Shown here: positions 1 to 37,414 of the stretch, in pieces
Layout: every line of letters starts with the position of its first letter
Position numbering within the stretch: position 1 is the stretch's first letter
The notes under the pieces: generated by a model
What the model saw: the letters and a program-made list of their open reading frames with translations, nothing else
What the model was told of the DNA's origin: nothing
The model's database searches: none
Virus record (IMG/VR): IMGVR_UViG_3300044709_000239
Coordinates: 1-37,414 of that record
Direction: 5' to 3' (one strand)
Length of the DNA: 37,414 nt
From: a virus
Lineage: Duplodnaviria; Caudoviricetes
Translations under genes and position numbers: made by a program

Positions 1-127
1 CGTAAGGGGATGTTTGCCCGTCATGATCAGATTAAACGAGATCTGGAAAAAATAAAAGAGATCATTTCACAAAAAAACTATGTGCAAATGGATATCTGCG
101 ATGAAAAAGTACAATCTATACTGGGAT
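1..127. repeat. Direct terminal repeat, copy 1 (circular-assembly overlap)
   Basis: 1-127 is identical to 37288-37414; 127 nt is a common assembler k-mer; an ORF reads through the junction. Confidence 0.95.
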
Positions 128-132
128 AGGAC

Positions 133-384
133 ATGGAAATCAACTTGGCTTGTATAGTTATATTTTCATTTGTGATTATTTTTATTTTGAATCGCATCGA
201 GTGTCGCAATGATATCCGTATCATGGAAGCACAGATGATGGCAAATAAAGACCTAATACGAGAGGTTCAGAGGGAAAATACGGCTGTCATGAGCGCTTTA
301 GATAAGTCTATTCTCTCAATGATTAAGGACCTGCAAGCAACTGTCAGCCATATAAAGGAAAGTAGAAATAAACTGCCGCCCTGA
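133..384 (+). CDS. Small membrane protein (N-terminal TM helix plus coiled coil)
   Basis: Hydrophobic LACIVIFSFVIIFIL then an amphipathic helix; AGGA upstream; follows the junction-spanning ORF. Confidence 0.7.
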   Translation: MEINLACIVIFSFVIIFILNRIECRNDIRIMEAQMMANKDLIREVQRENTAVMSALDKSILSMIKDLQATVSHIKESRNKLPP

Positions 385-390
385 CTTCCA

Positions 391-630
391 TTATTTTTTT
401 GGTATTTTAGCTCCGGATTTTCTTGCTTCACTTAAAGCGATGGCAACTGCTTGTGCTTTAGATTTTACCTTTCCGCCACCGCCTGAATGAAGAGTTCCAC
501 GCTTATATTCATCCATGACCACGCCAATCTTATCTTTTGGAGGAAGAGATTTTCTTTTTTTTTCTCCTGCACCCAGATTATCAGAGTGATGCATGGCGTC
601 TTTTTTTCTTTTTTCTTCTTCGGACTTCAT
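391..630 (-). CDS. Basic DUF6496-like protein
   Basis: KIGVVMDEYKRGTLHSG...KVKSKAQAVAIALSEARKSG matches my recollection of the DUF6496 motif; Lys-rich. Confidence 0.75.
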   Translation of the reverse strand: MKSEEEKRKKDAMHHSDNLGAGEKKRKSLPPKDKIGVVMDEYKRGTLHSGGGGKVKSKAQAVAIALSEARKSGAKIPKK

Positions 631-642
631 AAAACAACTCTT

Positions 643-2010
643 TTAAAAATATTCTACTATTATAATTTGTCCTCTAGCTCCATTACCACCGGCTCCAGAA
701 GCGTTTAGTGATAGATTGCCAGCGCCACCACCACCACCGCCTCCAGGAGCACCGCCATTACCACCCTTTCCAGCAGTAGTAACAGCATTCATCCCTCCAG
801 AACCTCCGCCAGTTCCTCCAACAGTTAATATTTGAACTCCTGTAGGCGGGTTACCATCACCTCCATCAGCGCCAGTATTTGCCCCTCCAATACCACCAGC
901 GACTAAAACGTTTCCTGCTCCATCTACAGTATCTTTAGCAGTCGCTCCAGTTCTTGGCGTACCAACAGTATAACCAGTTCCTCCACATCCAGCTCCACAC
1001 GATGCATATATAGAATTACCGGTATTTATTCCGCCGTTAGTAGTGTTCCCCGTACCTCCAATTTGAGTGCTGACCGATGCAAAAAGGCTAATGCTAGCTC
1101 CTGCTGCTCCTGCTGATGAACCTGCAGCTCCCCCAAGACCACCCACAGGTGCTGCTACAACAACAACTGACCCTACCGAGGAAGTACCGCCTGGATCTCC
1201 ATTATTCCCGCTAACATTCGTTCCGTTAACTGACGCACCACCATTACCACCTGCACCTACTGTAATCGTATATGGAGCACTAGTAAGAAGGGCTGCTGAT
1301 GTTTTCATATAATAAAAATTACCGGCCCCACCACCACCACCGCCAGCTGAAACAGAAGCCCCACATCTACCGCTTCCGCCTCCTGACGCTCCACTCCACA
1401 CAAAAAATTCCACTACTTTAGTCTTGGCATTTGGTGTCCACGAGCTATTAGCTATATACGTAGTTATCAAAGATGAAGCGCTAGGGGCTGAACTTACAAA
1501 ATTTGTCCCATTTGACGTTATGACATTTCCAGAAGTTCCAGCCGTAGCGGGATATGTAGCAGTTGAATACGTTGGGTCAGCGCTAGCTCCTCCAGATTGC
1601 AAGACCTGTCCTGCCGATCCGGCAGCTGTGGCTGCTACAGGGCTAGTAGCTTGTCCCAAAAGCACTCCATGATTCGTTAAAGTGACCTGGCCAGTGCCAC
1701 CGCCAGCTACGACCGCTGTGCCAAAAGCAGGGTCTGATGCAGCGCCTTGAGAAATTAATGGTACGCCGCTTGTGGCTGCTGGCGCAATCTTAGTAATAGT
1801 AGCCGTACCTGCACCAATCAAAACATTATGCGTAGTCAATCCCGTAAGAGCGGTGGTTACGGTATTGCCAGAACCCGTTGTCGTGATAGACCCGGAGCCT
1901 AGATCTTTTAAAACATTAGCTGCCGGAATAGCTGTACCAGAATCTGTGACGAAGCTGGTTGGTATAGATGGCGATGATCCCGCAACGTTTAATACTCCAG
2001 ATTGGCTCAT
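643..2010 (-). CDS. Gly/Thr-rich tail fibre/spike-like virion protein with C-terminal glycine-rich domain
   Basis: Two H(G/N)VLxG...DPx(F/Y) repeats; long GGxGG domain ending GGNGARGQIIIVEYF; likely start MSQSG at 2010 (ORF track starts at 2028). Confidence 0.7.
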   Translation of the reverse strand: MSQSGVLNVAGSSPSIPTSFVTDSGTAIPAANVLKDLGSGSITTTGSGNTVTTALTGLTTHNVLIGAGTATITKIAPAATSGVPLISQGAASDPAFGTAVVAGGGTGQVTLTNHGVLLGQATSPVAATAAGSAGQVLQSGGASADPTYSTATYPATAGTSGNVITSNGTNFVSSAPSASSLITTYIANSSWTPNAKTKVVEFFVWSGASGGGSGRCGASVSAGGGGGGAGNFYYMKTSAALLTSAPYTITVGAGGNGGASVNGTNVSGNNGDPGGTSSVGSVVVVAAPVGGLGGAAGSSAGAAGASISLFASVSTQIGGTGNTTNGGINTGNSIYASCGAGCGGTGYTVGTPRTGATAKDTVDGAGNVLVAGGIGGANTGADGGDGNPPTGVQILTVGGTGGGSGGMNAVTTAGKGGNGGAPGGGGGGGAGNLSLNASGAGGNGARGQIIIVEYF

Positions 2011-2011
2011 A

Positions 2012-2347
2012 CTATTCCCCCGCTCCATAGGTAGCTTCTAGATATACAGCCCCACTCACGGGTGCCGTAGACTGCTTGCAATAAATTTGGGTTCTAGATG
2101 CTACCAGAAAAGGTAAACTAGGCTCTGTATCTGAGCAAAAATCATATAAAACAAATGATCCAGCCGGAACAAATAAATGGTCGACGATACCGTCAAAAGA
2201 TATTATTACGTCACCGACTGTGGTATTTATGATCCGTATTATTCTCATAGGATGCAAAAACACAGACCCTAAAGCTGCATATGTCCCAGAGATGCTCCCG
2301 AAGGCTAAGCTTCGTAGAGCATCTTGTCTAACGATTTGTGAAGCCAT
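2012..2347 (-). CDS. Small beta-rich hypothetical virion protein
   Basis: 111-aa ORF tightly packed between two fibre-like genes. Confidence 0.65.
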   Translation of the reverse strand: MASQIVRQDALRSLAFGSISGTYAALGSVFLHPMRIIRIINTTVGDVIISFDGIVDHLFVPAGSFVLYDFCSDTEPSLPFLVASRTQIYCKQSTAPVSGAVYLEATYGAGE

Positions 2348-2361
2348 AATTTCCTAGGTTC

Positions 2362-3465
2362 TTATTGCGTTAAAACAATGTACAGAATGGTTACGACCAA
2401 TGTGTTGTTGTTAGCAGCATTCCCTGTTATGGCTGTGGACGAATTGAACAGCACTAAAGGTTGATTTTCAACTCCCGTAGCTATTGTTATCACATCAGCA
2501 TCAATGCCAGGCAAATTATATGTGCTAGCAGATTGATCAATAAATCCAGATCCGTTCGCCACGGCGACAGCTGCCCCTGCACCATTTGTATATCGCACAT
2601 CGATATCTTGAGGATTTGTAAACGGATTAGTGCCCCCATAAACCAATTTCATTTGCACCTGAATGGGTACAATGGATTTACCAGCACCTTGTGCAGCTAC
2701 AAGCGTTATGGGAGTGCTTTCCAATGCCTTAACCTGTGCAGAAGTCAGCGTTACAGTAGCTGAAGCCAACAAACTGGGGACAGCTTCTAAATTTAAAGTC
2801 CCTGCGCCTGGCGTGAATGCAATAGTGCCACCAGATGACGTCAGAGTTGAGAATACAGGATCCGCTCCGGTTGACCCTGTTAATACCTGCCCATTGGTTC
2901 CAACAGTCAGAGCATCTATAGCCGTATTGCCACCACCAATTAACACCCCATGATCTGTAAGACCAGAATTAACACCCAATGCACCAAAAGCCGGATCTGC
3001 TCCAGTTGCGCCTATAAGTACTTGTCCGGTTGTTCCTACAGCTAAAGCATCGATGGCAGCCGTTCCAGAACCAACTAAGACGCCATGATCTGTGTATGTG
3101 GCCGGAGTATACGGTCCTATCAGAGCCAATGTGATTTTATTGGCACCAGCCGTAGAGCTCACCTGATTGGCTGTGCCAGCTATCTGAACGTTACCAGCAA
3201 CTGTTGGTGTGACCAAAGTGCCGACGGTATCACTCAACGTTAAAATATCACCTGTTAAATTCGACTGAAGAATCCACATGCCAGCGCCTTCATAAAAAAA
3301 TACACTCCTAGAAATTGTATTTATCCACTGGCTTCCTGCAACGAAAGGAGATCCGTTAGAAGCAACGGTATCTATATGACTAACAGGATCCCTAGGAGCC
3401 TGTGTAGGCAAGCTAAGAGCTGAATTTTGCCCTGAGCCAAATGCGACATATGATGGAAAAGTCAT
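2362..3465 (-). CDS. Fibre-like virion protein with internal ~40-aa repeats
   Basis: Two copies of TDHGVLxGxGxxAIDALxVGTxGQVLxGxTGADPxF; T/G/A-rich. Confidence 0.7.
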   Translation of the reverse strand: MTFPSYVAFGSGQNSALSLPTQAPRDPVSHIDTVASNGSPFVAGSQWINTISRSVFFYEGAGMWILQSNLTGDILTLSDTVGTLVTPTVAGNVQIAGTANQVSSTAGANKITLALIGPYTPATYTDHGVLVGSGTAAIDALAVGTTGQVLIGATGADPAFGALGVNSGLTDHGVLIGGGNTAIDALTVGTNGQVLTGSTGADPVFSTLTSSGGTIAFTPGAGTLNLEAVPSLLASATVTLTSAQVKALESTPITLVAAQGAGKSIVPIQVQMKLVYGGTNPFTNPQDIDVRYTNGAGAAVAVANGSGFIDQSASTYNLPGIDADVITIATGVENQPLVLFNSSTAITGNAANNNTLVVTILYIVLTQ

Positions 3466-3547: not shown

Positions 3548-5707
3548 ATGCCGATGTATTTTCCCCCATGGGACACGGATACGGAACCATCCGAGTCAAA
3601 TATAAAAATTTGGATGGATAACTTATACGGCAAATTCGAGCCTATTGAGCAAGCCCGATGGAATCAGTCCAACATAGATACGCTTTTCTATGCCGGTGAG
3701 CAGCGGTTCATCAATTCTTATTTCAACTTTAACCCGCAATATAATTACCAGACTTTCCAATTCAACCTGATCGCTCAGCCAGTGAATATGGTGACTGGAT
3801 ACCAAAGGCAGCACCGTAGATCTATAAACTATTTGCCTATAGAGGGCTCTAAGCAAGAATATGCCGATGATCTTACGAAATTGGTGGTGTATGCCAATAA
3901 CTATAATGGGATCTTAGAAAAATTCTCACAGGCATGCGAACAAGCCGCTATTGCCGGAATGGTTCTAGTACAGCCATATCTAGACTATACTCAAGACCCT
4001 GTGAACGGCCAAATGGATCTTAAAGTTTGGTCATACAATAGCTTTATGATGGACCCATATTTCCGACAAACTGGCGATATGAGCGACTGTAATTTCGTAT
4101 GGTGTCAACAGTATATCTCCAAGGCTGAAGCGATAAATCGTTTCCCGCAAAAGGCAGATTTATTGCAAACCATGTCCGGGTATGGGAACCGATACGGTAA
4201 ATTTTATTTCCTTCCAGAAAACTATAATCTAGCCCGGAATGACCTGCTGGTACTATCGCACGTATGGTATAAGAGCAAACGTAAGAAAAAGATGCTCTAT
4301 AACCATAACGATGGCATCTCATATGACTATGTGGATGATGATAAATATCTAGATGACCTGATAAAAAATACTGGGTTTTTTGAAATCATAGAGGTCACTG
4401 TTCCCACGTGGAAATTGGCAAGCGTTATCAATGAGCAGATCATGTACTTGGGGGGTAATCCCATGGGCTTTGATGAATGCCCATTTGTTCCGGTATTCTG
4501 GAATTATGATCCCCATGTTGCTCAATATGATCTGAGAGTGCGATCACTAGTCCGCAGCATGCGTGACAGCCAATTCCTTTTAAATCGTCGGATTATTTTA
4601 AATCACGATATCAGTGAAAGTTCTATAAACTCAGGATGGCTGAGAAAAGAAAATGCCATTGCCAATGAAGATGATCTCCGATATTCGGGGCAAGGAAAAG
4701 ACATCATAATCAAAGAAGGCTTCGAGCTAAGTGATATACAGAAAATCATCCCCAACGCAGTGCCTCCAAGTGATATGGAACTTGCAAACCAGCTGGCGGA
4801 TTTTATCTTCAGAACTTCTGGAGTCAATCAAGAGCTCATGGGGATGGCATCCGACTCCAAAACTGGCATACAAGAGATGCTACGTCAGGGCGCAGGCCTG
4901 GTAACTTTACAAAAGTATTTTGACCAGTGGGATATCGCCCTAAAGCAGCTAGGCAAATTGGAACAAAAGATCATTCAGAATAAGTGGAGCCCTTCAAAGA
5001 TCGCTAGGATACTTGGCAAGGAACCAAATCCTGAATTCTTGAATAAAACATACTCACAATATGATGTCATGGTTGCAGAAGGTCTAAACACCACTCTACA
5101 GCAACAACAGCAATTTGTGCAGATGATGGATCTAAATACCATTTTAGGAGGGATAATTCCTCCTAAATTCTTATTGCAGCATTCCACTATCCAAGGGAAA
5201 AACGAGATCATAGAGGCCATCGAGCAACAGCAAGCGCAGCAAGCAGAAATGGCCCAACAAGAAGCCATGCTAAAACATACTCTTCTAGAAGCTCAATTGC
5301 AGAATATGCAAGCAAAATCTGCTGCTGAGCTAGCTACCGCTAGAGAACGGCACGGAAGGGCTGAAGCAGATATAGGATTATTCGAAGAGCGCCTGTCTGA
5401 GATATCACAGAACCGTGCTATGGCTGTTAAGAATAAAGTGGACGCTTTGGCTAAACTGATTGAGACGACCATGAAATATGGCCAGTTTGAAATGGATAGG
5501 CAAGAGCGTGAATTAGAGAAGATGAATGTACAAGCTGTTATGGATGAAGATCGTGAAAAACAAGATGCAAAGATGACGTCTGATTCTAACGATTTCCTTG
5601 CTCAGATGATGCAAAAGATATCCTCTCAAAATACCATGGAAGGTCAACAGCCACAGGCGGCCCCTATGGGTCAACAACAAGGAATACAACAAGGAGTTCC
5701 ACAATGA
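3548..5707 (+). CDS. Portal protein (P22-like)
   Basis: 719 aa; FNLIAQPVNMVTGYQRQHR motif, PFVP...GxxxSG segments, Gln-rich C-terminal barrel helix; AGGAG RBS; heads the head operon. Confidence 0.9.
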   Translation: MPMYFPPWDTDTEPSESNIKIWMDNLYGKFEPIEQARWNQSNIDTLFYAGEQRFINSYFNFNPQYNYQTFQFNLIAQPVNMVTGYQRQHRRSINYLPIEGSKQEYADDLTKLVVYANNYNGILEKFSQACEQAAIAGMVLVQPYLDYTQDPVNGQMDLKVWSYNSFMMDPYFRQTGDMSDCNFVWCQQYISKAEAINRFPQKADLLQTMSGYGNRYGKFYFLPENYNLARNDLLVLSHVWYKSKRKKKMLYNHNDGISYDYVDDDKYLDDLIKNTGFFEIIEVTVPTWKLASVINEQIMYLGGNPMGFDECPFVPVFWNYDPHVAQYDLRVRSLVRSMRDSQFLLNRRIILNHDISESSINSGWLRKENAIANEDDLRYSGQGKDIIIKEGFELSDIQKIIPNAVPPSDMELANQLADFIFRTSGVNQELMGMASDSKTGIQEMLRQGAGLVTLQKYFDQWDIALKQLGKLEQKIIQNKWSPSKIARILGKEPNPEFLNKTYSQYDVMVAEGLNTTLQQQQQFVQMMDLNTILGGIIPPKFLLQHSTIQGKNEIIEAIEQQQAQQAEMAQQEAMLKHTLLEAQLQNMQAKSAAELATARERHGRAEADIGLFEERLSEISQNRAMAVKNKVDALAKLIETTMKYGQFEMDRQERELEKMNVQAVMDEDREKQDAKMTSDSNDFLAQMMQKISSQNTMEGQQPQAAPMGQQQGIQQGVPQ

Positions 5708-6322: not shown

Positions 6323-6366
6323 ATGCCCTCAGAATTCCTGGTAGTTGTTCTGAGGGCATTTTTTAT
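6323..6366 (+). terminator. Intrinsic terminator between convergent genes
   Basis: ATGCCCTCAGAA / TTCTGAGGGCAT 12-bp stem followed by a T-run. Confidence 0.75.
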
Positions 6367-6818
6367 TTCTTACTTCGATACACATCTCTAATCTGATCAT
6401 CCGACAGATCGTCAGGATCCGGTTTACACATATCCATAGGGTTTGCTTTGAATCTCTCTATGCACTCATGGACAAATGGGTCTGCAAACATTTTGTCTTG
6501 CTTATACAACCCGAAGTTTTCTTGATTAGGTAACGTCCAGATTATTACGGCTTTGTCAGGGTCTTTTGGATCTACCTTCATGAGTGTAGTGCCCGGAACT
6601 GGCTCTGGACGAGTCAATCTTGCTTGGTGATACATCTTTTTTATTCCGGCATCGTCGTCAATACGCTTCACAAAGCTAAATATATAGAATTTGTGGTCTC
6701 CAAATGGTTTTGAGACTATTAGATTTTGTATGCAATCAACATAACCCTGTTCAGAATTCTGTTTGAAAAACTCAACGTTGTCCAACATCATGTTCTTTTT
6801 GATAATAAAATTTTGCAT
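6363..6818 (-). CDS. Hypothetical protein, opposite strand within the head module
   Basis: AGGGG RBS before ATG 6818 (MQNFII...); occupies an otherwise empty gap; globular-looking composition. Confidence 0.75.
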   Translation of the reverse strand: MQNFIIKKNMMLDNVEFFKQNSEQGYVDCIQNLIVSKPFGDHKFYIFSFVKRIDDDAGIKKMYHQARLTRPEPVPGTTLMKVDPKDPDKAVIIWTLPNQENFGLYKQDKMFADPFVHECIERFKANPMDMCKPDPDDLSDDQIRDVYRSKK

Positions 6819-6925
6819 ATAATCCCCTATGCGTGAATAATCAAATTGAATATACCATCGCACAGATATGCGTAAAATGTCTAACCCCTAGCGTTAATGC
6901 TGCTCGCACCAGCCAAAGGAAATAT

Positions 6926-7636
6926 ATGACAGATCAAGCCGTTAATTCTCCGGTCGTCGGCGCTCCGGATGCTCAGACTAGCGACAAGGAAGTAAATTTC
7001 CGGCGGTTAGAAGCTGCCAGAGATTCCGAAAGGGAAGCTCGGATCCGTGCAGAAATGCACTCCCAGCGTATGGAAGAAGAACTCAAAAACATAAAAGATA
7101 TGCTACAACCTAAAGAGAGCGATCCTTTGGATAGTAGCGAAGACTATGTTGACGGTGTTCGACTAAAAGCGAAACTTGAAAAAGAAAGAGCTTCATACGA
7201 AAAGAAAGCTGTGGATATCGCTAGGAACACATATGAGCAAATCCAGTTGGAGGAAAAAAAGAAGAATTTCCTGGGGAGACTTAAATCCGAGCATTCTGAT
7301 TACGATCAGATAATGAGCGAGAATAATGTTATCAACCTGGAAAAACAGAATCCTCATTTTGTGCAGGCAATTTTAAAGATAGACGACGAATACGATAGAA
7401 GAAAATTGGCCTATGAGTATCTCAAAGCCAATCAAGCTCCTAAGGAAACGTTTCAAAGTATTAAAGATAAAGTGGCTGAAAATGCTTCCAACCCCTACTA
7501 CATACCAGCGGGCAGCGGAACACCTACAGCCATTGAATTTGATACCAAGTCCGCATCCTCTCGTGAAGCGGCTTATGCGAAATTGAAAGCTGCACAGAAA
7601 CGACCAATTGGATCCGGCACTGGCCTAGCACATTAG
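6926..7636 (+). CDS. Probable capsid scaffolding protein
   Basis: Charged coiled-coil protein directly upstream of the MCP; AAGGA RBS before ATG 6926. Confidence 0.75.
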   Translation: MTDQAVNSPVVGAPDAQTSDKEVNFRRLEAARDSEREARIRAEMHSQRMEEELKNIKDMLQPKESDPLDSSEDYVDGVRLKAKLEKERASYEKKAVDIARNTYEQIQLEEKKKNFLGRLKSEHSDYDQIMSENNVINLEKQNPHFVQAILKIDDEYDRRKLAYEYLKANQAPKETFQSIKDKVAENASNPYYIPAGSGTPTAIEFDTKSASSREAAYAKLKAAQKRPIGSGTGLAH

Positions 7637-7688: not shown

Positions 7689-8636
7689 ATGACTATAACA
7701 ACAACCAGCAACTTACCAGCACCGATTTTACAATCGCTTGCTCCGGGTATGCTGTCGGTGCCTACACCGAATTTTAACTACATAATTCCGGCTGAAAAGT
7801 ATTCGATGCCCCGTAACGGTGGTACTACGATGCGTTTTTTGCGACCAGTTCCTCTACAGCCCCCCGTAGTTCAGCTGGGGAATACCGGCATAGAACCAGC
7901 TTCACAAGTGGCGACAAGAGAGATCTTAGATGCTGCTATGGCGTTCTATGGCACCTCTGTGATACTTAACGAGCAGGTCGTGATCCAGGACCAGGATCCA
8001 ATTTTGTCGTGGGTAACGGAGCGTCTTGGCGTAGCAATGAGACAAGCTGAAGATATAATCCTTCGTGATTATCTTTTGAGCGCTGTTTCTGTCTATAACT
8101 GCCGTGGTGGCACTAATGGAGACAATCCTACTGATATATCTGTAAGAGATCTTTCAGCTGTTGCGTCTTCTTTAGACACCAGCAATGCATTTAAATTCTT
8201 GTCGGGTAAGCAAGGCGAAAACCGTTTCGGAACGTCTCCGATCCGTAGCGCCTATTTCTTACTTTGCAGCACAGAATTACAGCCAGCATTTGATGGCATG
8301 GATAAATTCACAAGCTCGTGGAACTACCCTAACCAAAATGATGTGATCTATAGCGAATATGGCGCAGTGCTGAACTTTAGAATTTTTACAAGTTCTGAAG
8401 CTGCTGTACAGCGCAATGCTTCTATGAATGGCAATGACGTGTTTAACAACATGGCAGTCGCAAGAGAATCATATGCTCATATAGACCAGGACGGATATTC
8501 TAGCCAACTACTATATCGTCCCCCTATTTTCAGCGGTCCTCTGGCTTTGAACGGCACTCTGGGTGTGAAATTTGCCCAAGCTCAAGCTCTCTTACAAGAG
8601 ACTTGGATCCGTAACGTACGTTGCACATTAGCCTAA
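7689..8636 (+). CDS. Major capsid protein (N4-gp56-like, HK97 fold)
   Basis: 315 aa; MPRNGGTTMRFLRP, YG..V.L.EQV, LG..MRQAED, E.G....RIF, GPL...GTLGVKF pattern typical of N4-gp56-family MCPs; position after scaffold. Confidence 0.85.
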   Translation: MTITTTSNLPAPILQSLAPGMLSVPTPNFNYIIPAEKYSMPRNGGTTMRFLRPVPLQPPVVQLGNTGIEPASQVATREILDAAMAFYGTSVILNEQVVIQDQDPILSWVTERLGVAMRQAEDIILRDYLLSAVSVYNCRGGTNGDNPTDISVRDLSAVASSLDTSNAFKFLSGKQGENRFGTSPIRSAYFLLCSTELQPAFDGMDKFTSSWNYPNQNDVIYSEYGAVLNFRIFTSSEAAVQRNASMNGNDVFNNMAVARESYAHIDQDGYSSQLLYRPPIFSGPLALNGTLGVKFAQAQALLQETWIRNVRCTLA

Positions 8637-8646: not shown

Positions 8647-9684
8647 ATGACAGAATATAATAAAATTTCCGATGTGACCTTCACCTCTACCGGTGTTGCA
8701 AAATACATCAAACTTCCATATTTGCCTGATTCGGTAGAGATGTGGAACAAAACAGCGTCGGCTCTAAATACAAATCATTTGGTTGCATCTGCAATTGGCT
8801 GGGCTGCTGAAAACTCTGGCGTAGCATATACACAGACTAGCAATGGCACTGCCAATACAAACGTTAAAATTACCGCAGGTGGTTTTAGCTTTGTAACAGC
8901 GGGAACATATCAATATGGTCCAACTCTAACAATTTCAGGGATTGTGGCTGCCACAGGTGTTGTAACAACTACAACTCCCCACAACCTAGCTGTTGGGGAT
9001 GCCGTACAAATTTACGGAACCACAGGCATGCTTCAGATAGCTGGGACAGCTACTACTGTAACAGCCGTTCCGTCCACAACAACATTCACATTAGGGAATA
9101 TTCCTACCGCCGGATTCGCAGCTAATGCAACAGCCGGTTTTGCTAAGAAAATTCTCTACCCTGATTTGTATAAGCCTTATGGGACTATTGTCACTGGCGT
9201 GACAGCAGCTAACCCATGCGTAATCACGACATCTTTAAATCACAGTTTTGTTGTTGGCCAAGAAGTATTCTTCGTTATGCCACAGACTGCATTCACTGGT
9301 GTTTGGGGTATGGGCGGATTGGATAGTGCTGCTGTTGTTAATGCGACCGGCATTCCTCAGCAAGCCTATGTAACGGCCATTACCAGCAATACCATAACTA
9401 TCAATATCGATAGCTCAGGATTTGCGGCATTTACATACCCAACAAGCGCTCAAGCGGCTCTTGGAATAACTTTCCCACAGGTATTTGCTATCGGTGACCA
9501 GAATTCTGGACAATCTTCCGTTGTTCAGCCTTTAACACCCCCAATAACTATACCTGGGGCATTTTATGCTAACACAAGCCAAGGAGTAATCGTTGGCATT
9601 GGTGACGGGACAACCCTAATGCACCAAACCGGCGATGTGATCAAGTTAAGATTTATTTATCCTGATCAAATTTTTACGGCATAA
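8647..9684 (+). CDS. Capsid decoration/structural protein with two E1-FCCH-like beta domains
   Basis: VVTTTTPHNLAVGDAVQIYGTTGM and VITTSLNHSFVVGQEVFF repeats; co-transcribed with the MCP before a terminator. Confidence 0.65.
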   Translation: MTEYNKISDVTFTSTGVAKYIKLPYLPDSVEMWNKTASALNTNHLVASAIGWAAENSGVAYTQTSNGTANTNVKITAGGFSFVTAGTYQYGPTLTISGIVAATGVVTTTTPHNLAVGDAVQIYGTTGMLQIAGTATTVTAVPSTTTFTLGNIPTAGFAANATAGFAKKILYPDLYKPYGTIVTGVTAANPCVITTSLNHSFVVGQEVFFVMPQTAFTGVWGMGGLDSAAVVNATGIPQQAYVTAITSNTITINIDSSGFAAFTYPTSAQAALGITFPQVFAIGDQNSGQSSVVQPLTPPITIPGAFYANTSQGVIVGIGDGTTLMHQTGDVIKLRFIYPDQIFTA

Positions 9685-9691
9685 CAAAGAC

Positions 9692-9729
9692 AGGCGACCT
9701 GCTTAATTGTGGGTCGCCTACTTTTCTTT
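9692..9729 (+). terminator. Intrinsic terminator after the capsid genes
   Basis: AGGCGACCTGC / GTGGGTCGCCT stem followed by ACTTTTCTTT. Confidence 0.7.
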
Positions 9730-9738
9730 AGAGGAAAT

Positions 9739-10146
9739 ATGACCTTCCAAAGTAACCATGGCGACTATCCCACGGGAATTTTTTATCCCTTTCGGTGTGA
9801 TATAACCTCTATAACCGCTTTAGAGGACTCTATCTTAGTCACCACTAGCGTGGATCATACTTTTTCTATTGGAAACCAAGTTTCATTTCTTATCCCACAG
9901 GCATATGGCATGAGGCAGTTGTCCGGAAAAACCGGATATGTCACTAGCATACCTGCTGTGGACCAAATAACCGTCAATATCAACGCATCACAATTCAATG
10001 AATTCATAACTCCTGTAGCGGCTTTTGATCCTGCTCAGGTGATGCCCATTGGAGATTCTAATTATGGGACTGTATCGCCCGGTGGAATACCTACCAACCC
10101 GAATACGATCCCAGGAGCATTCAACGTAACCCTAACGCCGAGTTAA
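9739..10146 (+). CDS. Structural protein with one FCCH-like domain
   Basis: LVTTSVDHTFSIGNQVSFLIP..YGM resembles the second domain of 8647-9684; GAGGA RBS before ATG 9739. Confidence 0.65.
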   Translation: MTFQSNHGDYPTGIFYPFRCDITSITALEDSILVTTSVDHTFSIGNQVSFLIPQAYGMRQLSGKTGYVTSIPAVDQITVNINASQFNEFITPVAAFDPAQVMPIGDSNYGTVSPGGIPTNPNTIPGAFNVTLTPS

Positions 10147-10147
10147 A

Positions 10148-10678
10148 ATGAAAATGAAAGAAAACGAATCATTAGTAAAAAGTGTCGTAGAGCTGCATGA
10201 CAGCATGGCATCACTAACGGTGGACTCTATATCAGAGACGCCAGTCATAGAGCCCGAGATACAGACAAAGATATGCTATAAAACTCTTGCAAAAGAGAAT
10301 AACTGTGTCTACATAGAGCCTAAGAAGCGATTGCCTGCCCTAGGTAAATTGCCAGAAAAGCAAAAGATAGAGCACGAAAATGCTTGGAAATATGTTAAAG
10401 GTATTTATGAAAATTATATCGTTAATGGTGAGCCCCTTTCTTTTTGGTACACAGAATATCCTGGAGATCAAGACTGCCTTTGGGAGATACCTGCAAACGT
10501 ACCTGTATACGTTCCAAGATTCATCGCTAAGCATCTAGAAGAATGTCAAAAATATCATACCTTCGGTTATAATGAAAAAAATTCTGGACATCAGCGTGTA
10601 GATGACTTCCAGTTTAATTTTAGCGCCACGGGAACTCATTACCGAGGCAAATTCCGAGCAATAGGGGCTTTTGCATGA
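10148..10678 (+). CDS. Hypothetical protein
   Basis: 176-aa ORF coupled to both neighbours. Confidence 0.75.
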   Translation: MKMKENESLVKSVVELHDSMASLTVDSISETPVIEPEIQTKICYKTLAKENNCVYIEPKKRLPALGKLPEKQKIEHENAWKYVKGIYENYIVNGEPLSFWYTEYPGDQDCLWEIPANVPVYVPRFIAKHLEECQKYHTFGYNEKNSGHQRVDDFQFNFSATGTHYRGKFRAIGAFA

Positions 10679-11679: not shown

Positions 11680-11686
11680 GTGATTC

Positions 11687-12265
11687 ATGACATACAATCC
11701 AAACATCCCACAGGCAAATGATGACCCAACGCAATCTCAATTGCAGTTACTGAATAACTTTGCCCAAATCAATACCCAATTTTCTGTAAACCATGTTCCA
11801 TTAACTGCTGGGGGCCAAAATGGGTTCCATACCCAGGTTGTTTTCAATAATGTGTTGTCTGTGGATCCTAATCCCACAGCGCCATCATCTGTTTTATATA
11901 CCAAAACGTCCACAACAGGGACAGTCCCAACCAATACAACGGAATTATTTTTTCAAAATGGTCCTCTGGCTGCCAATGTAAAGCAGTTGACCCAGTTACC
12001 AATTACCAAGGCCGCTCCTTCAAATTTTGGATTCACAACCCCATGGGGAATGATTGTAAACTGCGGATTACAAACTACCGGAGTTAGTCCAATTACATTC
12101 CAAGTTCCTTACCCTGTAGGATTTAATACTTACACTGCTTTAGTAACTCCGCAAAATGCAGCTGTAGCGATTTCAGTGGTAGTAAGTGTAACCCAAACAC
12201 AGTTGACTTTTGTTGTTTCTCCCGCTGCCACACCAATTTATTACTTAGTAATAGGATCTTCATGA
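11687..12265 (+). CDS. Tail-associated protein (paralog of next gene)
   Basis: MTY.P..PQ...NF...H...NG.H and TPWG.I.N.G shared with 12262-12876. Confidence 0.65.
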   Translation: MTYNPNIPQANDDPTQSQLQLLNNFAQINTQFSVNHVPLTAGGQNGFHTQVVFNNVLSVDPNPTAPSSVLYTKTSTTGTVPTNTTELFFQNGPLAANVKQLTQLPITKAAPSNFGFTTPWGMIVNCGLQTTGVSPITFQVPYPVGFNTYTALVTPQNAAVAISVVVSVTQTQLTFVVSPAATPIYYLVIGSS

Positions 12266-27379: not shown

Positions 27380-27517
27380 TATTCTGGCCTCTCAGGTAGA
27401 CTTGGGATTTAAAACCAATGCGTTACAGATAGCGTCAATAACGTGGAGGCCATACACGTCCCGCGCTTAGAAATTAAAATACCAATTCGTTAGATATTGG
27501 TAGAAAATTGGTAGCAA

Positions 27518-29258: not shown

Positions 29259-30485
29259 CTAAACATTGAAAATTTCTCCATTTCTTTTGATTTCACATTC
29301 CCTGCCATTCTCTACCATAAATTTTGCATATCGTTTTACGATGACATCACAATAGGCAGGACTTAGCTCAATTCCAAAACAGCGCCTGTTCAATTTCTCT
29401 GCTGCGATTAGAGTTGTTCCAGATCCTAGGAAGGGATCATATACGCCTTCGCCTTCTGCTGTGTTGTTTCGGATTGGCCGGGCCATGCATTCGAGTGGTT
29501 TTTGGGTGCTATGGCACGTGCGCTCGTCTTCTTCTTGGGATTTACCGAAGCAGTTTAGGTTGCCGATCTCCCACAAGGTTGATTCTTTTCGGCTTCCTTG
29601 CCAGTTGTGCTCTTTTCCTTTTTTGATCGCATACCAGCATGGCTCATGCTGTGAATGATAATCGCCACGAGACAAAGCAAAATGCTGTTTAGCCCAAATA
29701 ATCTGACCTATTATTTGATAATCTGTATTTATTAGACTGCTGACAGTTTCAAATGCGAACTTATCACTACTCCAAACATAGGTGACATTACCTGGGAATA
29801 ATGCCCACGCCTTAGTCCAATCGCTCTTGTCATCGTTTTGCACTTTACCCGCAGCCTTTTGCCCCTTACCAGCTTCGCCTCTCCAATTAGCATTATATGC
29901 AACTCCATAGGGAGGATCGGTCACCATAATTATAGGAGACTCCCCATTAAGCAAACGATCCACACAACTGCTATCAGTAGAATCGCCACAAGCAAGTCGA
30001 TGCTGTCCCAGCTCATAAACATCCCCCATTTTAGTGATCGCGTCCTCGTCTTTCCCTAAATCATTGGTCTGCGCATCATCATCACCACCAATAGCATCGT
30101 CGCCGAGTTCTATGCCTAGTTCATCAGGCGTGAAACCCCAGTCTAGAAGCTCATCAACATTCCACTCGTTGGCCAAACATTCCCAGTCCCAATCACCGGT
30201 ATTTTTGTTAAGTCTTATGTTTAACTCGTCGATTTGGCTTTCATCTAGCTGAACATTCGGCACCCAACACTCAATCTCTTTGTATCCTAATTCTTTTAAT
30301 ACCTTTAGACGCTGGTGTCCACCCACGATCATCCCGTCTATAGTGCAGATCGGTTTCTCAGCAACGCCGAATCTTGTTAAGGATTCTTTTAATTTTTCGT
30401 GCTGAGCTTTGGTGAGTATCCTAGGGTTTTTAGGATGTTCCTTGAGGTCTTTGATTTTCAATGTTTTCAGTTGCCACTCGATCAT
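29259..30485 (-). CDS. ParB-N domain / N4-N6 DNA methyltransferase fusion
   Basis: NPR...GGHQRL (ParB-like); TDPPY, HSTQKP, DPFLGSGTT (beta-class MTase). Confidence 0.92.
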   Translation of the reverse strand: MIEWQLKTLKIKDLKEHPKNPRILTKAQHEKLKESLTRFGVAEKPICTIDGMIVGGHQRLKVLKELGYKEIECWVPNVQLDESQIDELNIRLNKNTGDWDWECLANEWNVDELLDWGFTPDELGIELGDDAIGGDDDAQTNDLGKDEDAITKMGDVYELGQHRLACGDSTDSSCVDRLLNGESPIIMVTDPPYGVAYNANWRGEAGKGQKAAGKVQNDDKSDWTKAWALFPGNVTYVWSSDKFAFETVSSLINTDYQIIGQIIWAKQHFALSRGDYHSQHEPCWYAIKKGKEHNWQGSRKESTLWEIGNLNCFGKSQEEDERTCHSTQKPLECMARPIRNNTAEGEGVYDPFLGSGTTLIAAEKLNRRCFGIELSPAYCDVIVKRYAKFMVENGRECEIKRNGEIFNV

Positions 30486-32028: not shown

Positions 32029-32550
32029 TTACTCAAACAGATTCAGTTGCTCATAACCGTATGTAATGCCATAGTCAACGCAAGCTTCAACACAATCTAT
32101 CTCTGTAACATTCTGTGCGGTTATTATCATCGTTGTTCCAGGCTTGAGGCCATATCTTTTCACAGCAGTTATCTCAGAAACGAACCGATCATCCTGCCAA
32201 ATAACGCCTGTAGCGCAGTCTAAGTAAAATTTTATTAGGTTGTCAATATCTGGTTTACACGCATGAAAGGCGTTGACGCTGATGAGCGCCTTTTTTTTGG
32301 ACCATGACTTTGGCATCTCAAACCAGAAAAAAACTATCACTTTATAGGACTTTGCACCTGAAAGTGATAAGGCTTCCATTGCGGATGCCTTATCTTGGCT
32401 GTTTAAAGCGCTGCCAAGCCTCTTTTTCATAAGAGCCTGTATGATCCGCTTGTCTGATGCATTTGGATTGAATACAACGGGCCTATTGCCTTTCATCGAA
32501 AACCTAGGTCTTTTCTGCGGAATCGGTGGCCCTGGGATATCAAATCTCAC
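32029..32550 (-). CDS. rusA: RusA-family Holliday junction resolvase
   Basis: IPG.P.P..RPRF, KPDIDNL.K..LD, W.DD..V...K.Y. Confidence 0.92.
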   Translation of the reverse strand: MRFDIPGPPIPQKRPRFSMKGNRPVVFNPNASDKRIIQALMKKRLGSALNSQDKASAMEALSLSGAKSYKVIVFFWFEMPKSWSKKKALISVNAFHACKPDIDNLIKFYLDCATGVIWQDDRFVSEITAVKRYGLKPGTTMIITAQNVTEIDCVEACVDYGITYGYEQLNLFE

Positions 32551-32825
32551 TTGTTCTCCGATCTGGTATACTCATCAAAAAACTTTATGATAATCTTCAT
32601 GTGATCGTGGATATATTCTCCGTACGGGATGATATGAAGTTGCCCATGTCTGTTGTTCCATCGGCGTTCTCTTTCGAATCTCATCCACCGGTGCGAATTG
32701 GATTCGCCAAATGCCCAAAGCTCGAATTTCTCCAGCTCGTAGACCGGTTTGATATCCACATCGTCGTCATCAGGCAATAGCACAATCCACTTGAACCATC
32801 TTTTCATCGATTCCATAATTTTCAT
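32547..32825 (-). CDS. Hypothetical protein
   Basis: GAGGAG RBS; coupled to rusA. Confidence 0.65.
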   Translation of the reverse strand: MKIMESMKRWFKWIVLLPDDDDVDIKPVYELEKFELWAFGESNSHRWMRFERERRWNNRHGQLHIIPYGEYIHDHMKIIIKFFDEYTRSENK

Positions 32826-32827
32826 GT

Positions 32828-33373
32828 CTAAACTCCTCGCAGATCAGGGCCATCGAAATGCAGCCATTTTGAATCTTTCAACCTTGAATAAATTCTGGGG
32901 CCAAACTTGGTCTCGATCTCTTTTGGAGACAGATTGGTGGTGATGATCGTCGGTTTCATGTCTTCCCACCGTTTATCTATCAAATCGTAGTAATCTCGTT
33001 CGGTTCGCTCTCCTGATCGTTCTATACCTAAGTCATCCAAAAATAAAATATCAGATTCGGCAAATTTAGCGATGCAGAAACTCGTATCGCTGTAGTTGTT
33101 GAAATCTGCGACCATCTGGTCGTCAAGGTTTTTTGATTTTATCCATCGTATGCAACCTATACCGTATTTTTGGATTGCTTGGCGCACCAGCAAAAACATA
33201 ACGGTGCTCTTTCCCCTGCCTGCTTGTCCATGAAGAACTAGGCTGATGGGATTTTGTCGCCAGGCCATTATAGCCGAAATAATTTCGTCCGATTGGTCTT
33301 TGCATTTATCGATGCTGACATCCGAAAATCGAGGTCCAATTTTGGCCAGCTCGCAAAAAACTTTCCAGCTCAT
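32828..33373 (-). CDS. DnaC/IstB-like AAA+ helicase loader
   Basis: GQAGRGKS, LFLDDLG, PTIITTNL, RIYSRL, GPDLR. Confidence 0.92.
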   Translation of the reverse strand: MSWKVFCELAKIGPRFSDVSIDKCKDQSDEIISAIMAWRQNPISLVLHGQAGRGKSTVMFLLVRQAIQKYGIGCIRWIKSKNLDDQMVADFNNYSDTSFCIAKFAESDILFLDDLGIERSGERTERDYYDLIDKRWEDMKPTIITTNLSPKEIETKFGPRIYSRLKDSKWLHFDGPDLRGV

Positions 33374-34278
33374 GATTTGAAACGCAGTTCTTCCATGATT
33401 GCAGCCCTCTGGTCGGCAGATAATTCACTGGGGGCTATGGGTGTAGGGACCCAGTCGTCTTTCGAGGTCTGGAAGGCTAGTTTTGAGTTTTTGCGATGAT
33501 AAGCTACGTCGCTCTCTGGGCCAGCCTTTTCTTTTCTCATCCGATACCATGAAAGGATGGTGGCGTAGTGTGATTTGTATTTCCTCATGAATTGCGCAAC
33601 GCCTTTCTTTTCAGCTTCGAGGTCTATGGTCTCGACCCAAGAGTCGAAGCCTGCTTGGCCGAACTTTTCCTTCAGCTTTCTTTGCTCCTCGGCCGTCAAG
33701 TGGCAATTGCCGTGCTCTCCTAGAGAATCTTTTGCATCTTCCGGGGTTTCTTTTCTTGCCGATGCTGGTGGCGTAGCCTTTTCGTTTGCAGATGAAGAAG
33801 AAGAACGAACCCGCTCCCGTGCCGCGATAGCGGCTTCCCCTTTGGGGGGTAGGGGGTATTTCTTATCTTTATTCTTCTCTTTATTCTCTATATATGAGGG
33901 GAGTGCGCTTTTATGCTCACCTGGTGTGCGCTTTTCCGCACTACTGCTGTGCGCTTTTCCGCACTGCTGCTGTGCACCTTCATATTCGACATTTGGAACA
34001 ATTGCCCTGCGAACTGTCCGTCTACCATCGAAGCTAATAGTTTCCATCAAACCAACAGCTTTCAGATCAGAAAAAAGCTCATACAGCCGTCTACGCTTGA
34101 GTTGCATAAATTCGCAAAGGTATTCTTCACTGGCATAGCATCCTCCGACGTTCGGATCATGTAAAGATCTAATTTCAGCCCACAGTGCCTTGGCTTGCAT
34201 GGAAATATCTCTTCGAAGCCAGATTTCTGCAGGTATCGTAATATGAGTGAAATGTCTTATGAGTGTTTCAGAGGTCAT
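33370..34278 (-). CDS. Replication initiator (lambda O-like, N-terminal winged helix)
   Basis: AKALW..I.SL....GGCYAS..YL; internal iterons; upstream of a DnaC-like gene. Confidence 0.85.
   Translation of the reverse strand: MTSETLIRHFTHITIPAEIWLRRDISMQAKALWAEIRSLHDPNVGGCYASEEYLCEFMQLKRRRLYELFSDLKAVGLMETISFDGRRTVRRAIVPNVEYEGAQQQCGKAHSSSAEKRTPGEHKSALPSYIENKEKNKDKKYPLPPKGEAAIAARERVRSSSSSANEKATPPASARKETPEDAKDSLGEHGNCHLTAEEQRKLKEKFGQAGFDSWVETIDLEAEKKGVAQFMRKYKSHYATILSWYRMRKEKAGPESDVAYHRKNSKLAFQTSKDDWVPTPIAPSELSADQRAAIMEELRFKS
33902..33977. repeat. 23-bp-period iterons; probable replication origin
   Basis: GTGCGCTTTT at 33903, 33926 and 33949 and partial GTGCAC at 33972, next to an AT-rich tract at about 33857-33896. 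Confidence 0.8.
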
Positions 34279-35138: not shown

Positions 35139-35627
35139 ATGAGTTTTGATGTCACCAATTACGTAGACAACATAGAACAAAAGTTCCGTGGAGAAGAAAA
35201 CAAATGGCTCAGAGTGGCCTTGAAGCTCCAGTTAAAATTGGAGCAAGCGCTAGTCATCATATCAGACAGCGATGAAGCGGAGTTCTGTGAGCAGTTTGTC
35301 ACAGAGCAAGACAAAAAAATACCTAAAACTTGTTTACAGGATCATAATATGTCATATAACGATTGGGACCAAAACTATAGCCCAGCAGACGACGAGATCG
35401 TACGGCCAGAACAGATAAAATTGGATAACGCATCATACTGGTTGGAGTCTGTACTAGAGCGCCTATACGACAAAGAAAGTCCTCTGGATTCGTTTTCTCT
35501 ACAATGCGATCTAGATGAGCTGTGTCACCAACTGGGAGTGAAACCTCGGTTCAGCCTGATACAAATTCAGAGAAAAGAAAACCCAGAATCAAAAGTTAGC
35601 GAATTCTTAAACGGCATGGAGGCCTAG
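35139..35627 (+). CDS. Hypothetical acidic protein
   Basis: 162-aa ORF upstream of erf. Confidence 0.7.
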   Translation: MSFDVTNYVDNIEQKFRGEENKWLRVALKLQLKLEQALVIISDSDEAEFCEQFVTEQDKKIPKTCLQDHNMSYNDWDQNYSPADDEIVRPEQIKLDNASYWLESVLERLYDKESPLDSFSLQCDLDELCHQLGVKPRFSLIQIQRKENPESKVSEFLNGMEA

Positions 35628-35628
35628 A

Positions 35629-36261
35629 ATGCAGAGCGAAAAAATAGATCTTCTGATCACAGCATTGGCAATAGCGCAGGGGGAAATATCTCCTGCGCCT
35701 AAATCGGCGGACAATCCGTTTCATAAATCGAAATATGCCAACCTCACATCTGTGTGGGAGGCTTGCCGTCTGCATCTCAGTAAAAACGGAATTGCTGTTG
35801 TGCAGACTCTTGATGAGTCTGCCGGGCAAATGGTTTTAGTGACTATGCTGGCTCACAGCAGCGGGCAGTGGATCAAATCCCGAGTTCCCATCCTGGTTGG
35901 CGATAAAAAGACGCCACAGACCATCGGAAGCGCGATCACATATATGCGCCGTTACAGCCTAGCTGCCATTGTTGGAGTTGCCCCTGAGCAAGACGACGAT
36001 GATGGGCAGGCTGCTACGATAGCCGTGCAGAAGCAGGAGACTCATCAAGTCGTTTCCTTAGCTCAAGCTAAGCAGTTAATTGATTTATATGACCAGTGCA
36101 CGCCAGAGCATAAGAAAGCGGTGCTGGACAACCTGAAGAGAGCTCCTACATATGTTGAAGGTTTTTATCACGTTCCACAAGGCATGTTCGAGAGGCTGGT
36201 AGCATCAGCCAAGAAGAATATTGCTGAAAATCAACTCAAAGTTCTTCATGAGGTCGGATAA
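35629..36261 (+). CDS. erf: ERF-family ssDNA-annealing protein
   Basis: AL..AQ.E....K...NPF.KSKYA.L, H.SGQWI, GSAITY.RRYSL.A..G....DDDG. Confidence 0.92.
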   Translation: MQSEKIDLLITALAIAQGEISPAPKSADNPFHKSKYANLTSVWEACRLHLSKNGIAVVQTLDESAGQMVLVTMLAHSSGQWIKSRVPILVGDKKTPQTIGSAITYMRRYSLAAIVGVAPEQDDDDGQAATIAVQKQETHQVVSLAQAKQLIDLYDQCTPEHKKAVLDNLKRAPTYVEGFYHVPQGMFERLVASAKKNIAENQLKVLHEVG

Positions 36262-37115
36262 TGCAATTACAACAGAATACGCCTGAATGGCTAGAGTTCC
36301 GTAAAAACTACCTGGGGGCATCTGATGCCCCCATCATCATGGGAGACTCGCCTTGGCGAACGCCTTTCCAGCTCTGGAAAGATAAGTTAGGGGTCGGCGA
36401 GCCCCAATCGATGTCTTCTGCAATGCAACGAGGCGTAGATATGGAGCAAGCCGCAAGAGACTGGTTTGAAGACAAGACGGGCATAGCGATATACCCCGAA
36501 GTTGTGTTGCATCCAGAGATCCCGTACCTAATGGCTAGCATAGATGGCATGAGTGAAGACCGAAAAATCATAGTCGAGATTAAATGCCCCGGGAAAGCTG
36601 ATCATTGTGTTGCAAAAAATGGTTCACCTCCTGCAAAGTATTATTCGCAGCTACAACATCAAATCGAAGTATGCAAAGTTGAAAAAACTTATTACTTATC
36701 GTTTGATGGGAAAGACGGTATTCTACTAGTTGTGGAGAAAGATGAAGATTACATTAAGAATCTTCTCACTAGGGAAGCCGAATTTTGGGATTGTGTAAAC
36801 GAATTCCGGGCTCCCGATCTCTGCGATAGGGATTACATTGTAAGAGACGATGATATTTGGCTGGAATTGGCAGAAGAGTGGAATGACCTACAGGAAAAGC
36901 TTAGGTGTCTGCAAGATCGTGAAAAGGAATTGAGGAGTTCTTTTGGAGTGATGGCAGATGGTCGCAATTGCCATGGGGGTGGCATAAAAGTGACAAAAGT
37001 GATTCGCAAAGGGGTTATAGACTATGCGTCGATACCAGGAATGAATCTGATTGATGTAGAAAAATACAGGAGAAAACCCACAGAATTTTTAAAAATAAGC
37101 AATTTGCCTTTTTAA
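36261..37115 (+). CDS. YqaJ-like (lambda-exonuclease family) recombination nuclease
   Basis: EWL..R...LGASD, G...E, ASIDG, VEIKCP, Y..QLQHQ. Confidence 0.92.
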   Translation: MQLQQNTPEWLEFRKNYLGASDAPIIMGDSPWRTPFQLWKDKLGVGEPQSMSSAMQRGVDMEQAARDWFEDKTGIAIYPEVVLHPEIPYLMASIDGMSEDRKIIVEIKCPGKADHCVAKNGSPPAKYYSQLQHQIEVCKVEKTYYLSFDGKDGILLVVEKDEDYIKNLLTREAEFWDCVNEFRAPDLCDRDYIVRDDDIWLELAEEWNDLQEKLRCLQDREKELRSSFGVMADGRNCHGGGIKVTKVIRKGVIDYASIPGMNLIDVEKYRRKPTEFLKISNLPF

Positions 37116-37197
37116 TAAGAACGCCTCTGGTGTGTGGGCACCAGAGGAATTCCGCCTACAAACTCAACTAAGTAGACGATTGACACGATAGGAGTAT

Positions 37198-37414
37198 ATG
37201 AAGAACCAACAAGACTTATTCCCTGCCTCAGAACTTGAGCTTCTGCGGGAAGAGATATCCGAACTACGGATATCCTCGGAGGCAGTTCGTAAGGGGATGT
37301 TTGCCCGTCATGATCAGATTAAACGAGATCTGGAAAAAATAAAAGAGATCATTTCACAAAAAAACTATGTGCAAATGGATATCTGCGATGAAAAAGTACA
37401 ATCTATACTGGGAT
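37198..37414 (+). CDS. 72-aa coiled-coil protein spanning the circular junction (stop TAG at 127-129)
   Basis: AGGAG RBS; MKNQQDLFPASELELLREEISELRISSEAVRKGMFARHDQIKRDLEKIKEIISQKNYVQMDICDEKVQSILG. Confidence 0.75.
   Translation, partial: MKNQQDLFPASELELLREEISELRISSEAVRKGMFARHDQIKRDLEKIKEIISQKNYVQMDICDEKVQSILG
37288..37414. repeat. Direct terminal repeat, copy 2
   Basis: Identical to 1-127. Confidence 0.95.

Follow-up and report, generated by a model that had tools for sequence, protein, structure and literature searches.

A P22-like phage of an uncultured family that carries no recognizable lysin and is likely to infect environmental Chlamydiota

Genome organization

The window analysed here is the entire IMG/VR record IMGVR_UViG_3300044709_000239 (37,414 nt, Caudoviricetes), and judged by its gene content (Table 1) it is the complete genome of a P22-like short-tailed double-stranded DNA (dsDNA) phage, or podophage, whose host and mode of release are the subject of this paper. 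The capsid protein, portal and large terminase subunit match TIGR04387, PF16510 and PF03237/phrog_2, which together make up a P22-like podophage architecture within the Caudoviricetes, and no tape measure was matched in the Pfam/PHROGs scan of the window open reading frames (ORFs). It should also be mentioned that the 626-residue ejection protein is like P22 gp16 by its features only, the phage being known here from its genes alone. The initial annotation had taken the genome to be complete, and this is borne out by a direct terminal repeat (DTR) of 127 nt at both ends and by the class of the record (DTR, 100% complete).

Table 1. Features of the window, with strand and basis of assignment
Feature	Position	Strand	Basis or remark
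Direct terminal repeat, left copy (circular assembly overlap)	1..127	.	Repeat search; DTR class
83-residue protein, one N-terminal membrane segment and coiled coil; holin-like candidate	133..384	+	Hydropathy
Putative tail-fibre or receptor-binding block (Gly-rich 461, 111 and 367 residues)	643..3465	-	Gly_rich_2; homologues in most relatives
P22-like portal	3548..5707	+	PF16510, E 7e-63; phrog_156
Core gene; predicted fold without match to a muralytic enzyme	6363..6863	-	In 17/17 relatives
Probable scaffold protein	6833..7636	+	Position; kept in 17/17 relatives
N4-gp56-family major capsid protein	7689..8636	+	TIGR04387 above cut-off; 1087 homologues
Head-closure, adaptor, short-tail nozzle and fibre genes, roles in part predicted from gene order	8647..16146	+	FCCH-repeat proteins
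176-residue core gene, modelled, no muralytic fold	10148-10678	+	Within block 8647..16146
Three probable DNA-ejection proteins (168, 409 and 626 residues), the last P22 gp16-like	16158..19786	+	No SLT domain detected
53-residue membrane protein abutting the last ejection gene; late-operon holin-like candidate	19787..19948	+	No homologue in relatives
Possible tRNA remnant: tRNA-like hairpin arrangement	20264..20344	+	Uncalled by ARAGORN or Rfam; folding z -1.4
Three-gene cargo operon, translationally coupled	20663..22115	+	Pfam, hydropathy
Coil and C-terminal anchor	20663-21166	+	Hydropathy
F-box and C-terminal hydrophobic segment	21166-21666	+	PF00646, E 5.4e-5, 23.4 bits against cut-off 20.5
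Coil and C-terminal anchor	21663-22115	+	Hydropathy
Collagen-like protein with BclA_C-like head	22231..22920	+	PF01391 and weak BclA_C; homologues in G029, G292
Small serine resolvase	23358..23921	-	Absent among the 17 relatives
64-residue protein, one N-terminal membrane segment and coil	24860..25054	-	Hydropathy
34-bp non-coding motif: palindrome TACCAA-W-TTGGTA and TTGGTAG half-sites phased 10-11 bp	27480..27515	+	Common to Chlamydiota chromosomes and related phages
Terminase large subunit	27518-28819	-	Pfam, PHROGs
Probable terminase small subunit	28819-29244	-	Pfam, PHROGs
ParB-N6/N4 DNA methyltransferase	29259..30485	-	Pfam, PHROGs
RusA, DnaC-like loader, helix-turn-helix replication initiator (host-dependent replication)	32029..34278	-	Pfam, PHROGs
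Erf annealase and YqaJ exonuclease	35629..37115	+	Pfam, PHROGs
Direct terminal repeat, right copy	37288..37414	.	

On the evidence of its protein matches the window belongs to a large uncultured phage family, since homologues of its capsid protein number 1087 and include 28 IMG/VR loci, many at 88-93% identity, and cultured phages attain no more than 20-25% identity. The comparison with relatives drew on 17 near-complete genomes and on regions of eight Chlamydiota genomes, and grouped 1459 ORFs into 730 clusters. Quick trees were made for capsid and portal; in the former, the branches lying deeper around the clade of the window consist of contigs that are either binned as chlamydial or carry the 34-bp motif discussed below.

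Search for lysis genes

The window contains 212 ORFs of at least 45 residues. Pfam and PHROGs scans at E<=0.01 took in 65 main ORFs, a further Pfam scan 59 alternative-frame ORFs and an NCBIfam scan 46 ORFs; together the scans cover every ORF of at least 80 residues, with many shorter opposite-frame ORFs lying outside them. No amidase, lysozyme, peptidase-type lysin, transglycosylase, holin or spanin family was matched among the scanned ORFs in any of these databases, and a simple pattern search in six frames gave no lipobox candidate for an o-spanin. From the relatives and the Chlamydiota genome regions, 397 of the 674 non-window cluster representatives (every multi-genome cluster and most singletons of at least 80-100 residues) were compared with Pfam, and 149 that were Pfam-negative or unexplained with PHROGs as well; no lysin, holin or spanin family was found at this coverage of one member per cluster, and one small membrane protein of a relative matched the PHROG 'hemolysin' (E 2.4e-5). 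The lysins of three distant N4-gp56-type phages used as controls were found as an M15 peptidase, a GH108 and a phrog_894 endolysin, and it tells against the negative that Pfam alone failed on the last of these. Nonetheless the absence of recognizable lysins is shown to be family-wide at the level of sequence matches, and the claim of the initial annotation that neither endolysin nor spanin can be recognized holds beyond the genome for which it was made.

An alternative that we regard as unlikely is that the host belongs to the Chlamydiota and that peptidoglycan is nonetheless removed, either by a muralytic enzyme of a new family, residing in an orphan ORF or in a domain of an ejection protein, or by a triggered host amidase. 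Besides the failure of Pfam on one control, this notion draws on the full sacculi of some environmental chlamydiae (PMC5814848), on unexplained orphans of 100-160 residues at 23043, 25892, 27035, 30805 and 35139, and on an Atlas cluster near the 626-residue ejection protein whose automatic name is 'lytic transglycosylase' but in which P22 gp16 is present in 74% of the members. The orphans are however without homologue in the 17 relatives, so that none can be the family's lysin, and the ejection protein has no SLT match in Pfam, PHROGs, NCBIfam or PDB sequences. Furthermore, two family-wide proteins of no assigned function were modelled (6363-6818, pLDDT 79.5, and 10148-10678, pLDDT 78.4), and invariant catalytic-type residues are missing from both. 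The search for muralytic folds proposed in the initial annotation was run on these two models and gave no clear match, with 0 Foldseek hits at E<=0.001 and best VIA Z scores of 3.4 and 5.2, a result by which no fold is excluded. Three alignments and four single proteins were compared with PDB sequences and gave nothing useful.

Evidence for the host

The host is very probably a member of the Chlamydiota, as the initial annotation had preferred, because a relative lies as a dif-bounded prophage in a chlamydial contig, dif sites of chlamydial type occur in ten of the 17 relatives, the window carries a 34-bp motif of Chlamydiota chromosomes that is absent from three control phyla, and the family repeatedly carries F-box and U-box cargo. 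Matches to the capsid profile were obtained in 9 of 400 Chlamydiota genomes; with only those of 70 bits or more counted and the centre genomes left out, there are 6 in 399 Chlamydiota and none in 300 Pseudomonadota (p 0.04). In G325, a complete divergent prophage of about 35.7 kb, with gene order as in the window, occupies C1 41986-77724 of a 137-kb chlamydial contig and is surrounded by the housekeeping genes kdtA, ribBA-ribH, kdsB-pyrG-ruvX and zwf-opcA-pgl; a flanking protein of no family has matches of up to 77% identity in 12 of 101 Chlamydiota genomes, a count that has no outgroup control. The right end of this prophage is flanked on both sides by a duplicated gene pair with a SocA/Panacea domain. 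The G211 chromosome furthermore holds an isolated broken capsid gene (L090:18626-19324, G211:C4) among U-box, BTB, DUF4116 and RHS genes, and BTB domains are among bacteria reported to be confined to Chlamydiae (PMC4209131). In the spacer matching proposed in the initial annotation, no CRISPR-spacer-like match stood out when window bases 19500-37414 were compared with 400 Chlamydiota genomes, two candidates being scored per genome and bases 1-19499 lying outside the search.

The G325 prophage has a 17-bp direct repeat at its ends, with the copies about 35.7 kb from each other, and each copy is part of a longer 11-6-11 dif-like site. The left-hand site has exactly the XerC arm of the dif predicted for Protochlamydia amoebophila (PMC3025954 supplement). 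The XerC arm GTCTGATAA stands in 19 rows of the dif table of Kono 2011 (PMC3025954), 14 of which are all 14 Chlamydiae, the other five being Acidobacterium, Thermodesulfovibrio, Syntrophobacter, Zymomonas and Desulfococcus. When 28-bp sites (11-6-11) were sought with a leave-one-out matrix, sites above the shuffle maximum of 16.9 were found in 10 of the 17 relatives and also in G189 and G292, and all 12 sites checked are intergenic; within the window's own portal subclade four of nine members have one. A lysin-bearing phage contig in a Chlamydiota bin (G329) was set aside as unrelated on account of its distance (capsid E 1e-7), and its dif-like score of 19.0 is marginal, with a poor XerD arm.

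The same comparison of window bases with 400 Chlamydiota genomes repeatedly recovered positions 27476-27517 at 85-94% identity. Variation among the copies breaks any reading frame, and the motif at this place is likely to be a protein-binding site. Allowing two mismatches, it is present in 10 of 201 Chlamydiota and in none of 201 Bacteroidota, 171 Patescibacteria and 171 Pseudomonadota (Fisher p 1.8e-6, or 3.7e-4 with only the 6 genomes outside the initial search list), a comparison biased by a pattern that was itself derived from chlamydial copies; reversed-pattern controls were all zero. On Chlamydiota chromosomes the motif often stands in two copies upstream of one 445-residue gene family, which we take to be Fic-like, and in many related phages it is intergenic. 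A shorter exact form occurs in 27 IMG/VR contigs, several of them redundant, of which 14 match the window's virion or packaging proteins and 23 some protein of the family, and the motif gave no meaningful plasmid or cultured-phage match.

Several observations weigh against a chlamydial host. G325 holds the sole integrated, host-flanked complete prophage, which is distant from the window (capsid 19%, portal 27%) and sits on a long branch in both trees, and the GC skew does not invert at its dif-like ends, which gives no support for the site as a replication terminus. No dif-like site was found in the window itself (best score 11.2 against a null mean of 11.0, within the shuffle range), and part of its host link therefore comes through its relatives. 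The same dif arms are found in Thermodesulfovibrio and Zymomonas, and the table has no Legionella or Coxiella rows (PMC3025954). Only 28 of 79 IMG/VR loci with the dif pattern match this family, and 4 of the 27 motif-bearing viral contigs match nothing in it, one being a 175-kb record (L183). Likewise, the resolvase has a higher identity with Legionella plasmid proteins (60%), its best plasmid matches, than with the two chlamydial copies compared (52-54%), and of 12 capsid matches in the whole genome collection only two are in chlamydial bins, the other ten being scattered over unrelated phyla, including two archaeal bins.

These matches bear on two other hosts. Another amoeba- or protist-associated intracellular bacterium (Dependentiae, Legionellales or Rickettsiales/Holosporales) is a quite improbable host, although it would fit the resolvase and the F-box and U-box cargo, which is common to amoeba-associated bacteria (PMC4209131), and although these groups were not sampled separately. 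Those Rickettsia and Wolbachia dif rows that were compared (PMC3025954) do not agree with the site of the family, the motif is absent from the 171 Pseudomonadota and strong capsid matches from the 300, and the only host-flanked prophage and remnant found are both in Chlamydiota genomes. A free-living or epibiotic host (Nitrospirota, Desulfobacterota, Bacteroidota or Patescibacteria) with a lysin too divergent for detection is less probable still, and we give it very little credence. It would account for the ten bins, which are of such groups, and for the GTCTGATAA arm in Nitrospirae, Deltaproteobacteria and Acidobacterium. However, because the bins include two archaea and because the contigs in non-chlamydial bins are intermixed in one clade of the capsid tree with a Chlamydiia bin, the scatter fits the mis-binning of phage contigs, though it is no proof of it; moreover the motif is absent from the Bacteroidota and Patescibacteria sampled, and ubiquitin-system cargo would have no evident target in such hosts. 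The 51 dif-pattern loci without clear link to the family (L187-L266) may represent further phages that integrate by Xer, whether in chlamydiae or in different hosts.

Integration and persistence

Returning to a chlamydial host, the family displays the pattern of Xer-exploiting integrative elements, with an intergenic 28-bp dif-like site that is kept at both ends of the G325 prophage, and a tyrosine integrase was found only in G343. Passive integration at dif by XerC/XerD has been shown for enterobacterial gokushoviruses (PMC7062461), and most members of the family may integrate in the same manner through the recombinases of their host. The window member would then have lost dif and gained a resolvase, and may persist as a resolvase-maintained circle or be virulent, because it has no dif and its resolvase is absent from all 17 relatives. 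The resolvase is likely to replace dif in maintaining the circle. A ParA-family gene with a small neighbour (L059:8424-9074 in G003), whose cluster is also present in G009 and G012, suggests a plasmid-prophage state in these three relatives.

Cargo

Inc proteins of chlamydiae are characterized by a bilobed hydrophobic domain of about 40-60 residues. No such hairpin is present in the cargo operon, where hydropathy gives one peak each for 20663-21166 and 21663-22115 and one longer segment for the F-box protein. The cargo was initially annotated as F-box, Inc-like and collagen-like, of which the F-box (PF00646) and the collagen repeats (PF01391) stand above their cut-offs and the Inc likeness comes down to a single C-terminal anchor. 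G018 has a trio of the same architecture at the same position without BLAST similarity, including an F-box-like gene, and U-box genes, weakly similar to those of the G211 chromosome (E 3e-5), are found in G003, G013 and G015. Apart from the protein itself, nothing of similar length was found to be homologous to the F-box protein, an Atlas search for 20663-21166 gave weak leads only, and the collagen-like protein has no meaningful plasmid or cultured-phage match. The N-termini of 11 hand-picked cargo proteins were examined for a secretion signal of chlamydial type III effectors; their content of Ser, Pro and Thr is 0.31, against 0.21 in 438 other phage proteins (p 0.003), without a drop in charge. 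Parachlamydiaceae are known for an expansion of F-box and U-box proteins (PMC4209131), and the F-box and tail-anchored cargo is, by a slight preference on our part, best regarded as predicted effectors that would be expressed by the lysogen and exported to the eukaryotic host cell.

Release from the host cell

The three tiny transmembrane proteins of the initial annotation (133-384, 19787-19948 and 24860-25054) are confirmed by hydropathy, by which 20663-21166, 21166-21666, 21663-22115 and 25330-25764 are membrane-anchored as well. The family of 133-384 numbers at least 5201 proteins without a Pfam entry and often forms tandem arrays, which in G002, G003 and G436 lie next to the ejection genes. 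Its two named homologues are from a Chlamydiae bin and a Saprospiraceae bin, and chromosomal paralogues, which we had expected in chlamydiae, were found in none of 5 Chlamydiota and none of 5 control genomes. A small membrane protein of a relative gave no meaningful plasmid or cultured-phage match.

The premise that many Chlamydiae have reduced peptidoglycan is valid for C. trachomatis, in which it is a septal ring only, and for Simkania, which has no isolable sacculus, but not for all chlamydiae (PMC5814848). Where peptidoglycan is a septal ring or undetectable, the holin-like single-pass proteins 19787-19948, 133-384 and 24860-25054 could suffice for release, and release by membrane damage through such proteins and without a lysin is a serious candidate to which we assign somewhat less than an even chance. 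Three facts are in poor agreement with it, namely that Protochlamydia amoebophila has a complete sacculus (PMC5814848), that the 133-384 family was detected in only 8 of the 17 relatives, and that, where checked, its genes are on the strand opposite the virion genes, unlike a typical late holin. The lack of recognizable lysins holds across the family, and the non-canonical release put forward initially is conjectural. Taken as a whole, we consider it probable that the window is a lysin-less P22-like phage of an uncultured family, which likely infects environmental Chlamydiota and likely exits through membrane damage by small proteins.

Relation to known systems

Gokushoviruses have been isolated from chlamydiae, and older electron-microscope reports describe phage-like particles in environmental chlamydiae. 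The closest functional parallel is phage WO of Wolbachia (proposed Wovirus, Symbioviridae; PMC9203015, PMC5062602), likewise a tailed temperate phage of an intracellular bacterium with eukaryote-directed cargo, which has no canonical set of endolysin, holin and spanin and whose small holin-like protein is built like those of the window's family, with a single membrane segment at the N-terminus and a coiled coil (PMC9203015). The window however gave no Pfam or PHROGs matches to the patatin, ankyrin, PAAR/baseplate or large serine recombinase of the WO definition (PMC9203015), and it has a P22-like portal and ejection proteins, whereas its family has F-box/U-box cargo and its relatives use dif-like sites. 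By analogy, the window would work like phage WO combined with an Xer-exploiting element, and it is a member of neither described family and unrelated to WO. Gokushoviruses (Microviridae) resemble it in host group, through the chlamydial isolates, and in their passive integration at dif, but they are tail-less single-stranded DNA viruses of about 4.5 kb with unrelated genes (PMC7062461). The putative prophage on plasmids of Protochlamydia massiliensis and Criblamydia sequanensis also brings dsDNA tailed-phage genes into environmental chlamydiae, but the genes by which it is known are those for a terminase, tail tip protein L and Gp33 (PMC7846284), and the window's portal had no match to chlamydial plasmids among 72,556 records. 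Burkholderia phage JC1 and Ralstonia phage GP4-like podophages give the nearest cultured portal matches and share the P22-like portal, but at 20-22% identity over 60-64%, with genomes of about 60 kb and free-living hosts.

The statement that characterized chlamydial phages are single-stranded DNA Microviridae needs trimming, since traces of dsDNA phages have already been noted: besides the plasmid prophage (PMC7846284), one unassigned virus was linked by Hi-C to a Chlamydiales bin (PMC10667309), and unclassified viruses were predicted on Chlamydiales (PMC12644861). The extract of PMC8242063 mentions only CRISPR defence. No description of a tailed-phage family of chlamydiae was found in the literature covered, which excludes most subscription journals, so that a prior description may exist. 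We can only tentatively suggest, as a rather doubtful extension, a widespread undescribed family of tailed temperate Chlamydiota phages without muralytic enzymes, which would lyse by holin-like proteins only, integrate at dif via XerCD or persist as resolvase circles, and shuttle ubiquitin-ligase effectors between chlamydial lineages. If true, a common dsDNA phage family would open a route for gene flow in a phylum regarded as genetically isolated, and would be a candidate for the vehicle of the chlamydial F-box and U-box expansions. It would also be a second tailed-phage lineage without endolysin, after phage WO, by which the need for a lysin under minimal peptidoglycan becomes testable. The dif site and the 34-bp motif are furthermore sequence handles for assigning chlamydial hosts to uncultured phages.

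Further observations

In several relatives (L017, L018, L019, L025, L034, L040, L102, L130) the capsid gene is interrupted, with LAGLIDADG or other ORFs nearby, and the interruptions are likely, from this arrangement, to be group I introns; the portal and large terminase genes are also split in some motif-bearing contigs and in G020 and G021. Relatives furthermore encode Tad2-like anti-defence domains, an outer-membrane beta-barrel and a Vut_1 transporter (L095:10856-11410, L073:7470-7796, L096:14877-15491, L068:18835-19551), and seven of them have genuine tRNA genes. The tRNA-like arrangement at 20264-20344 of the window comprises acceptor, D and T stems and a long stem at the anticodon position. 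Repeats in the virion proteins 8647-9684 and 12852-15638 match the FCCH domain of ubiquitin-activating enzyme E1 (928-residue protein, E 3e-19). The membrane-anchored protein 25330-25764 matches phrog_11227 (labelled protease) and phrog_200, has one homologue, in G016, and presumably resembles an SPFH-type fragment. Three DUF551 genes lie in tandem at 26266-27038, two of their junctions carrying a 48-nt repeat, and the C-terminal half of 34797-35093 matches the anti-CRISPR AcrF31 (PF25703, E 1.9e-6) slightly above the cut-off.

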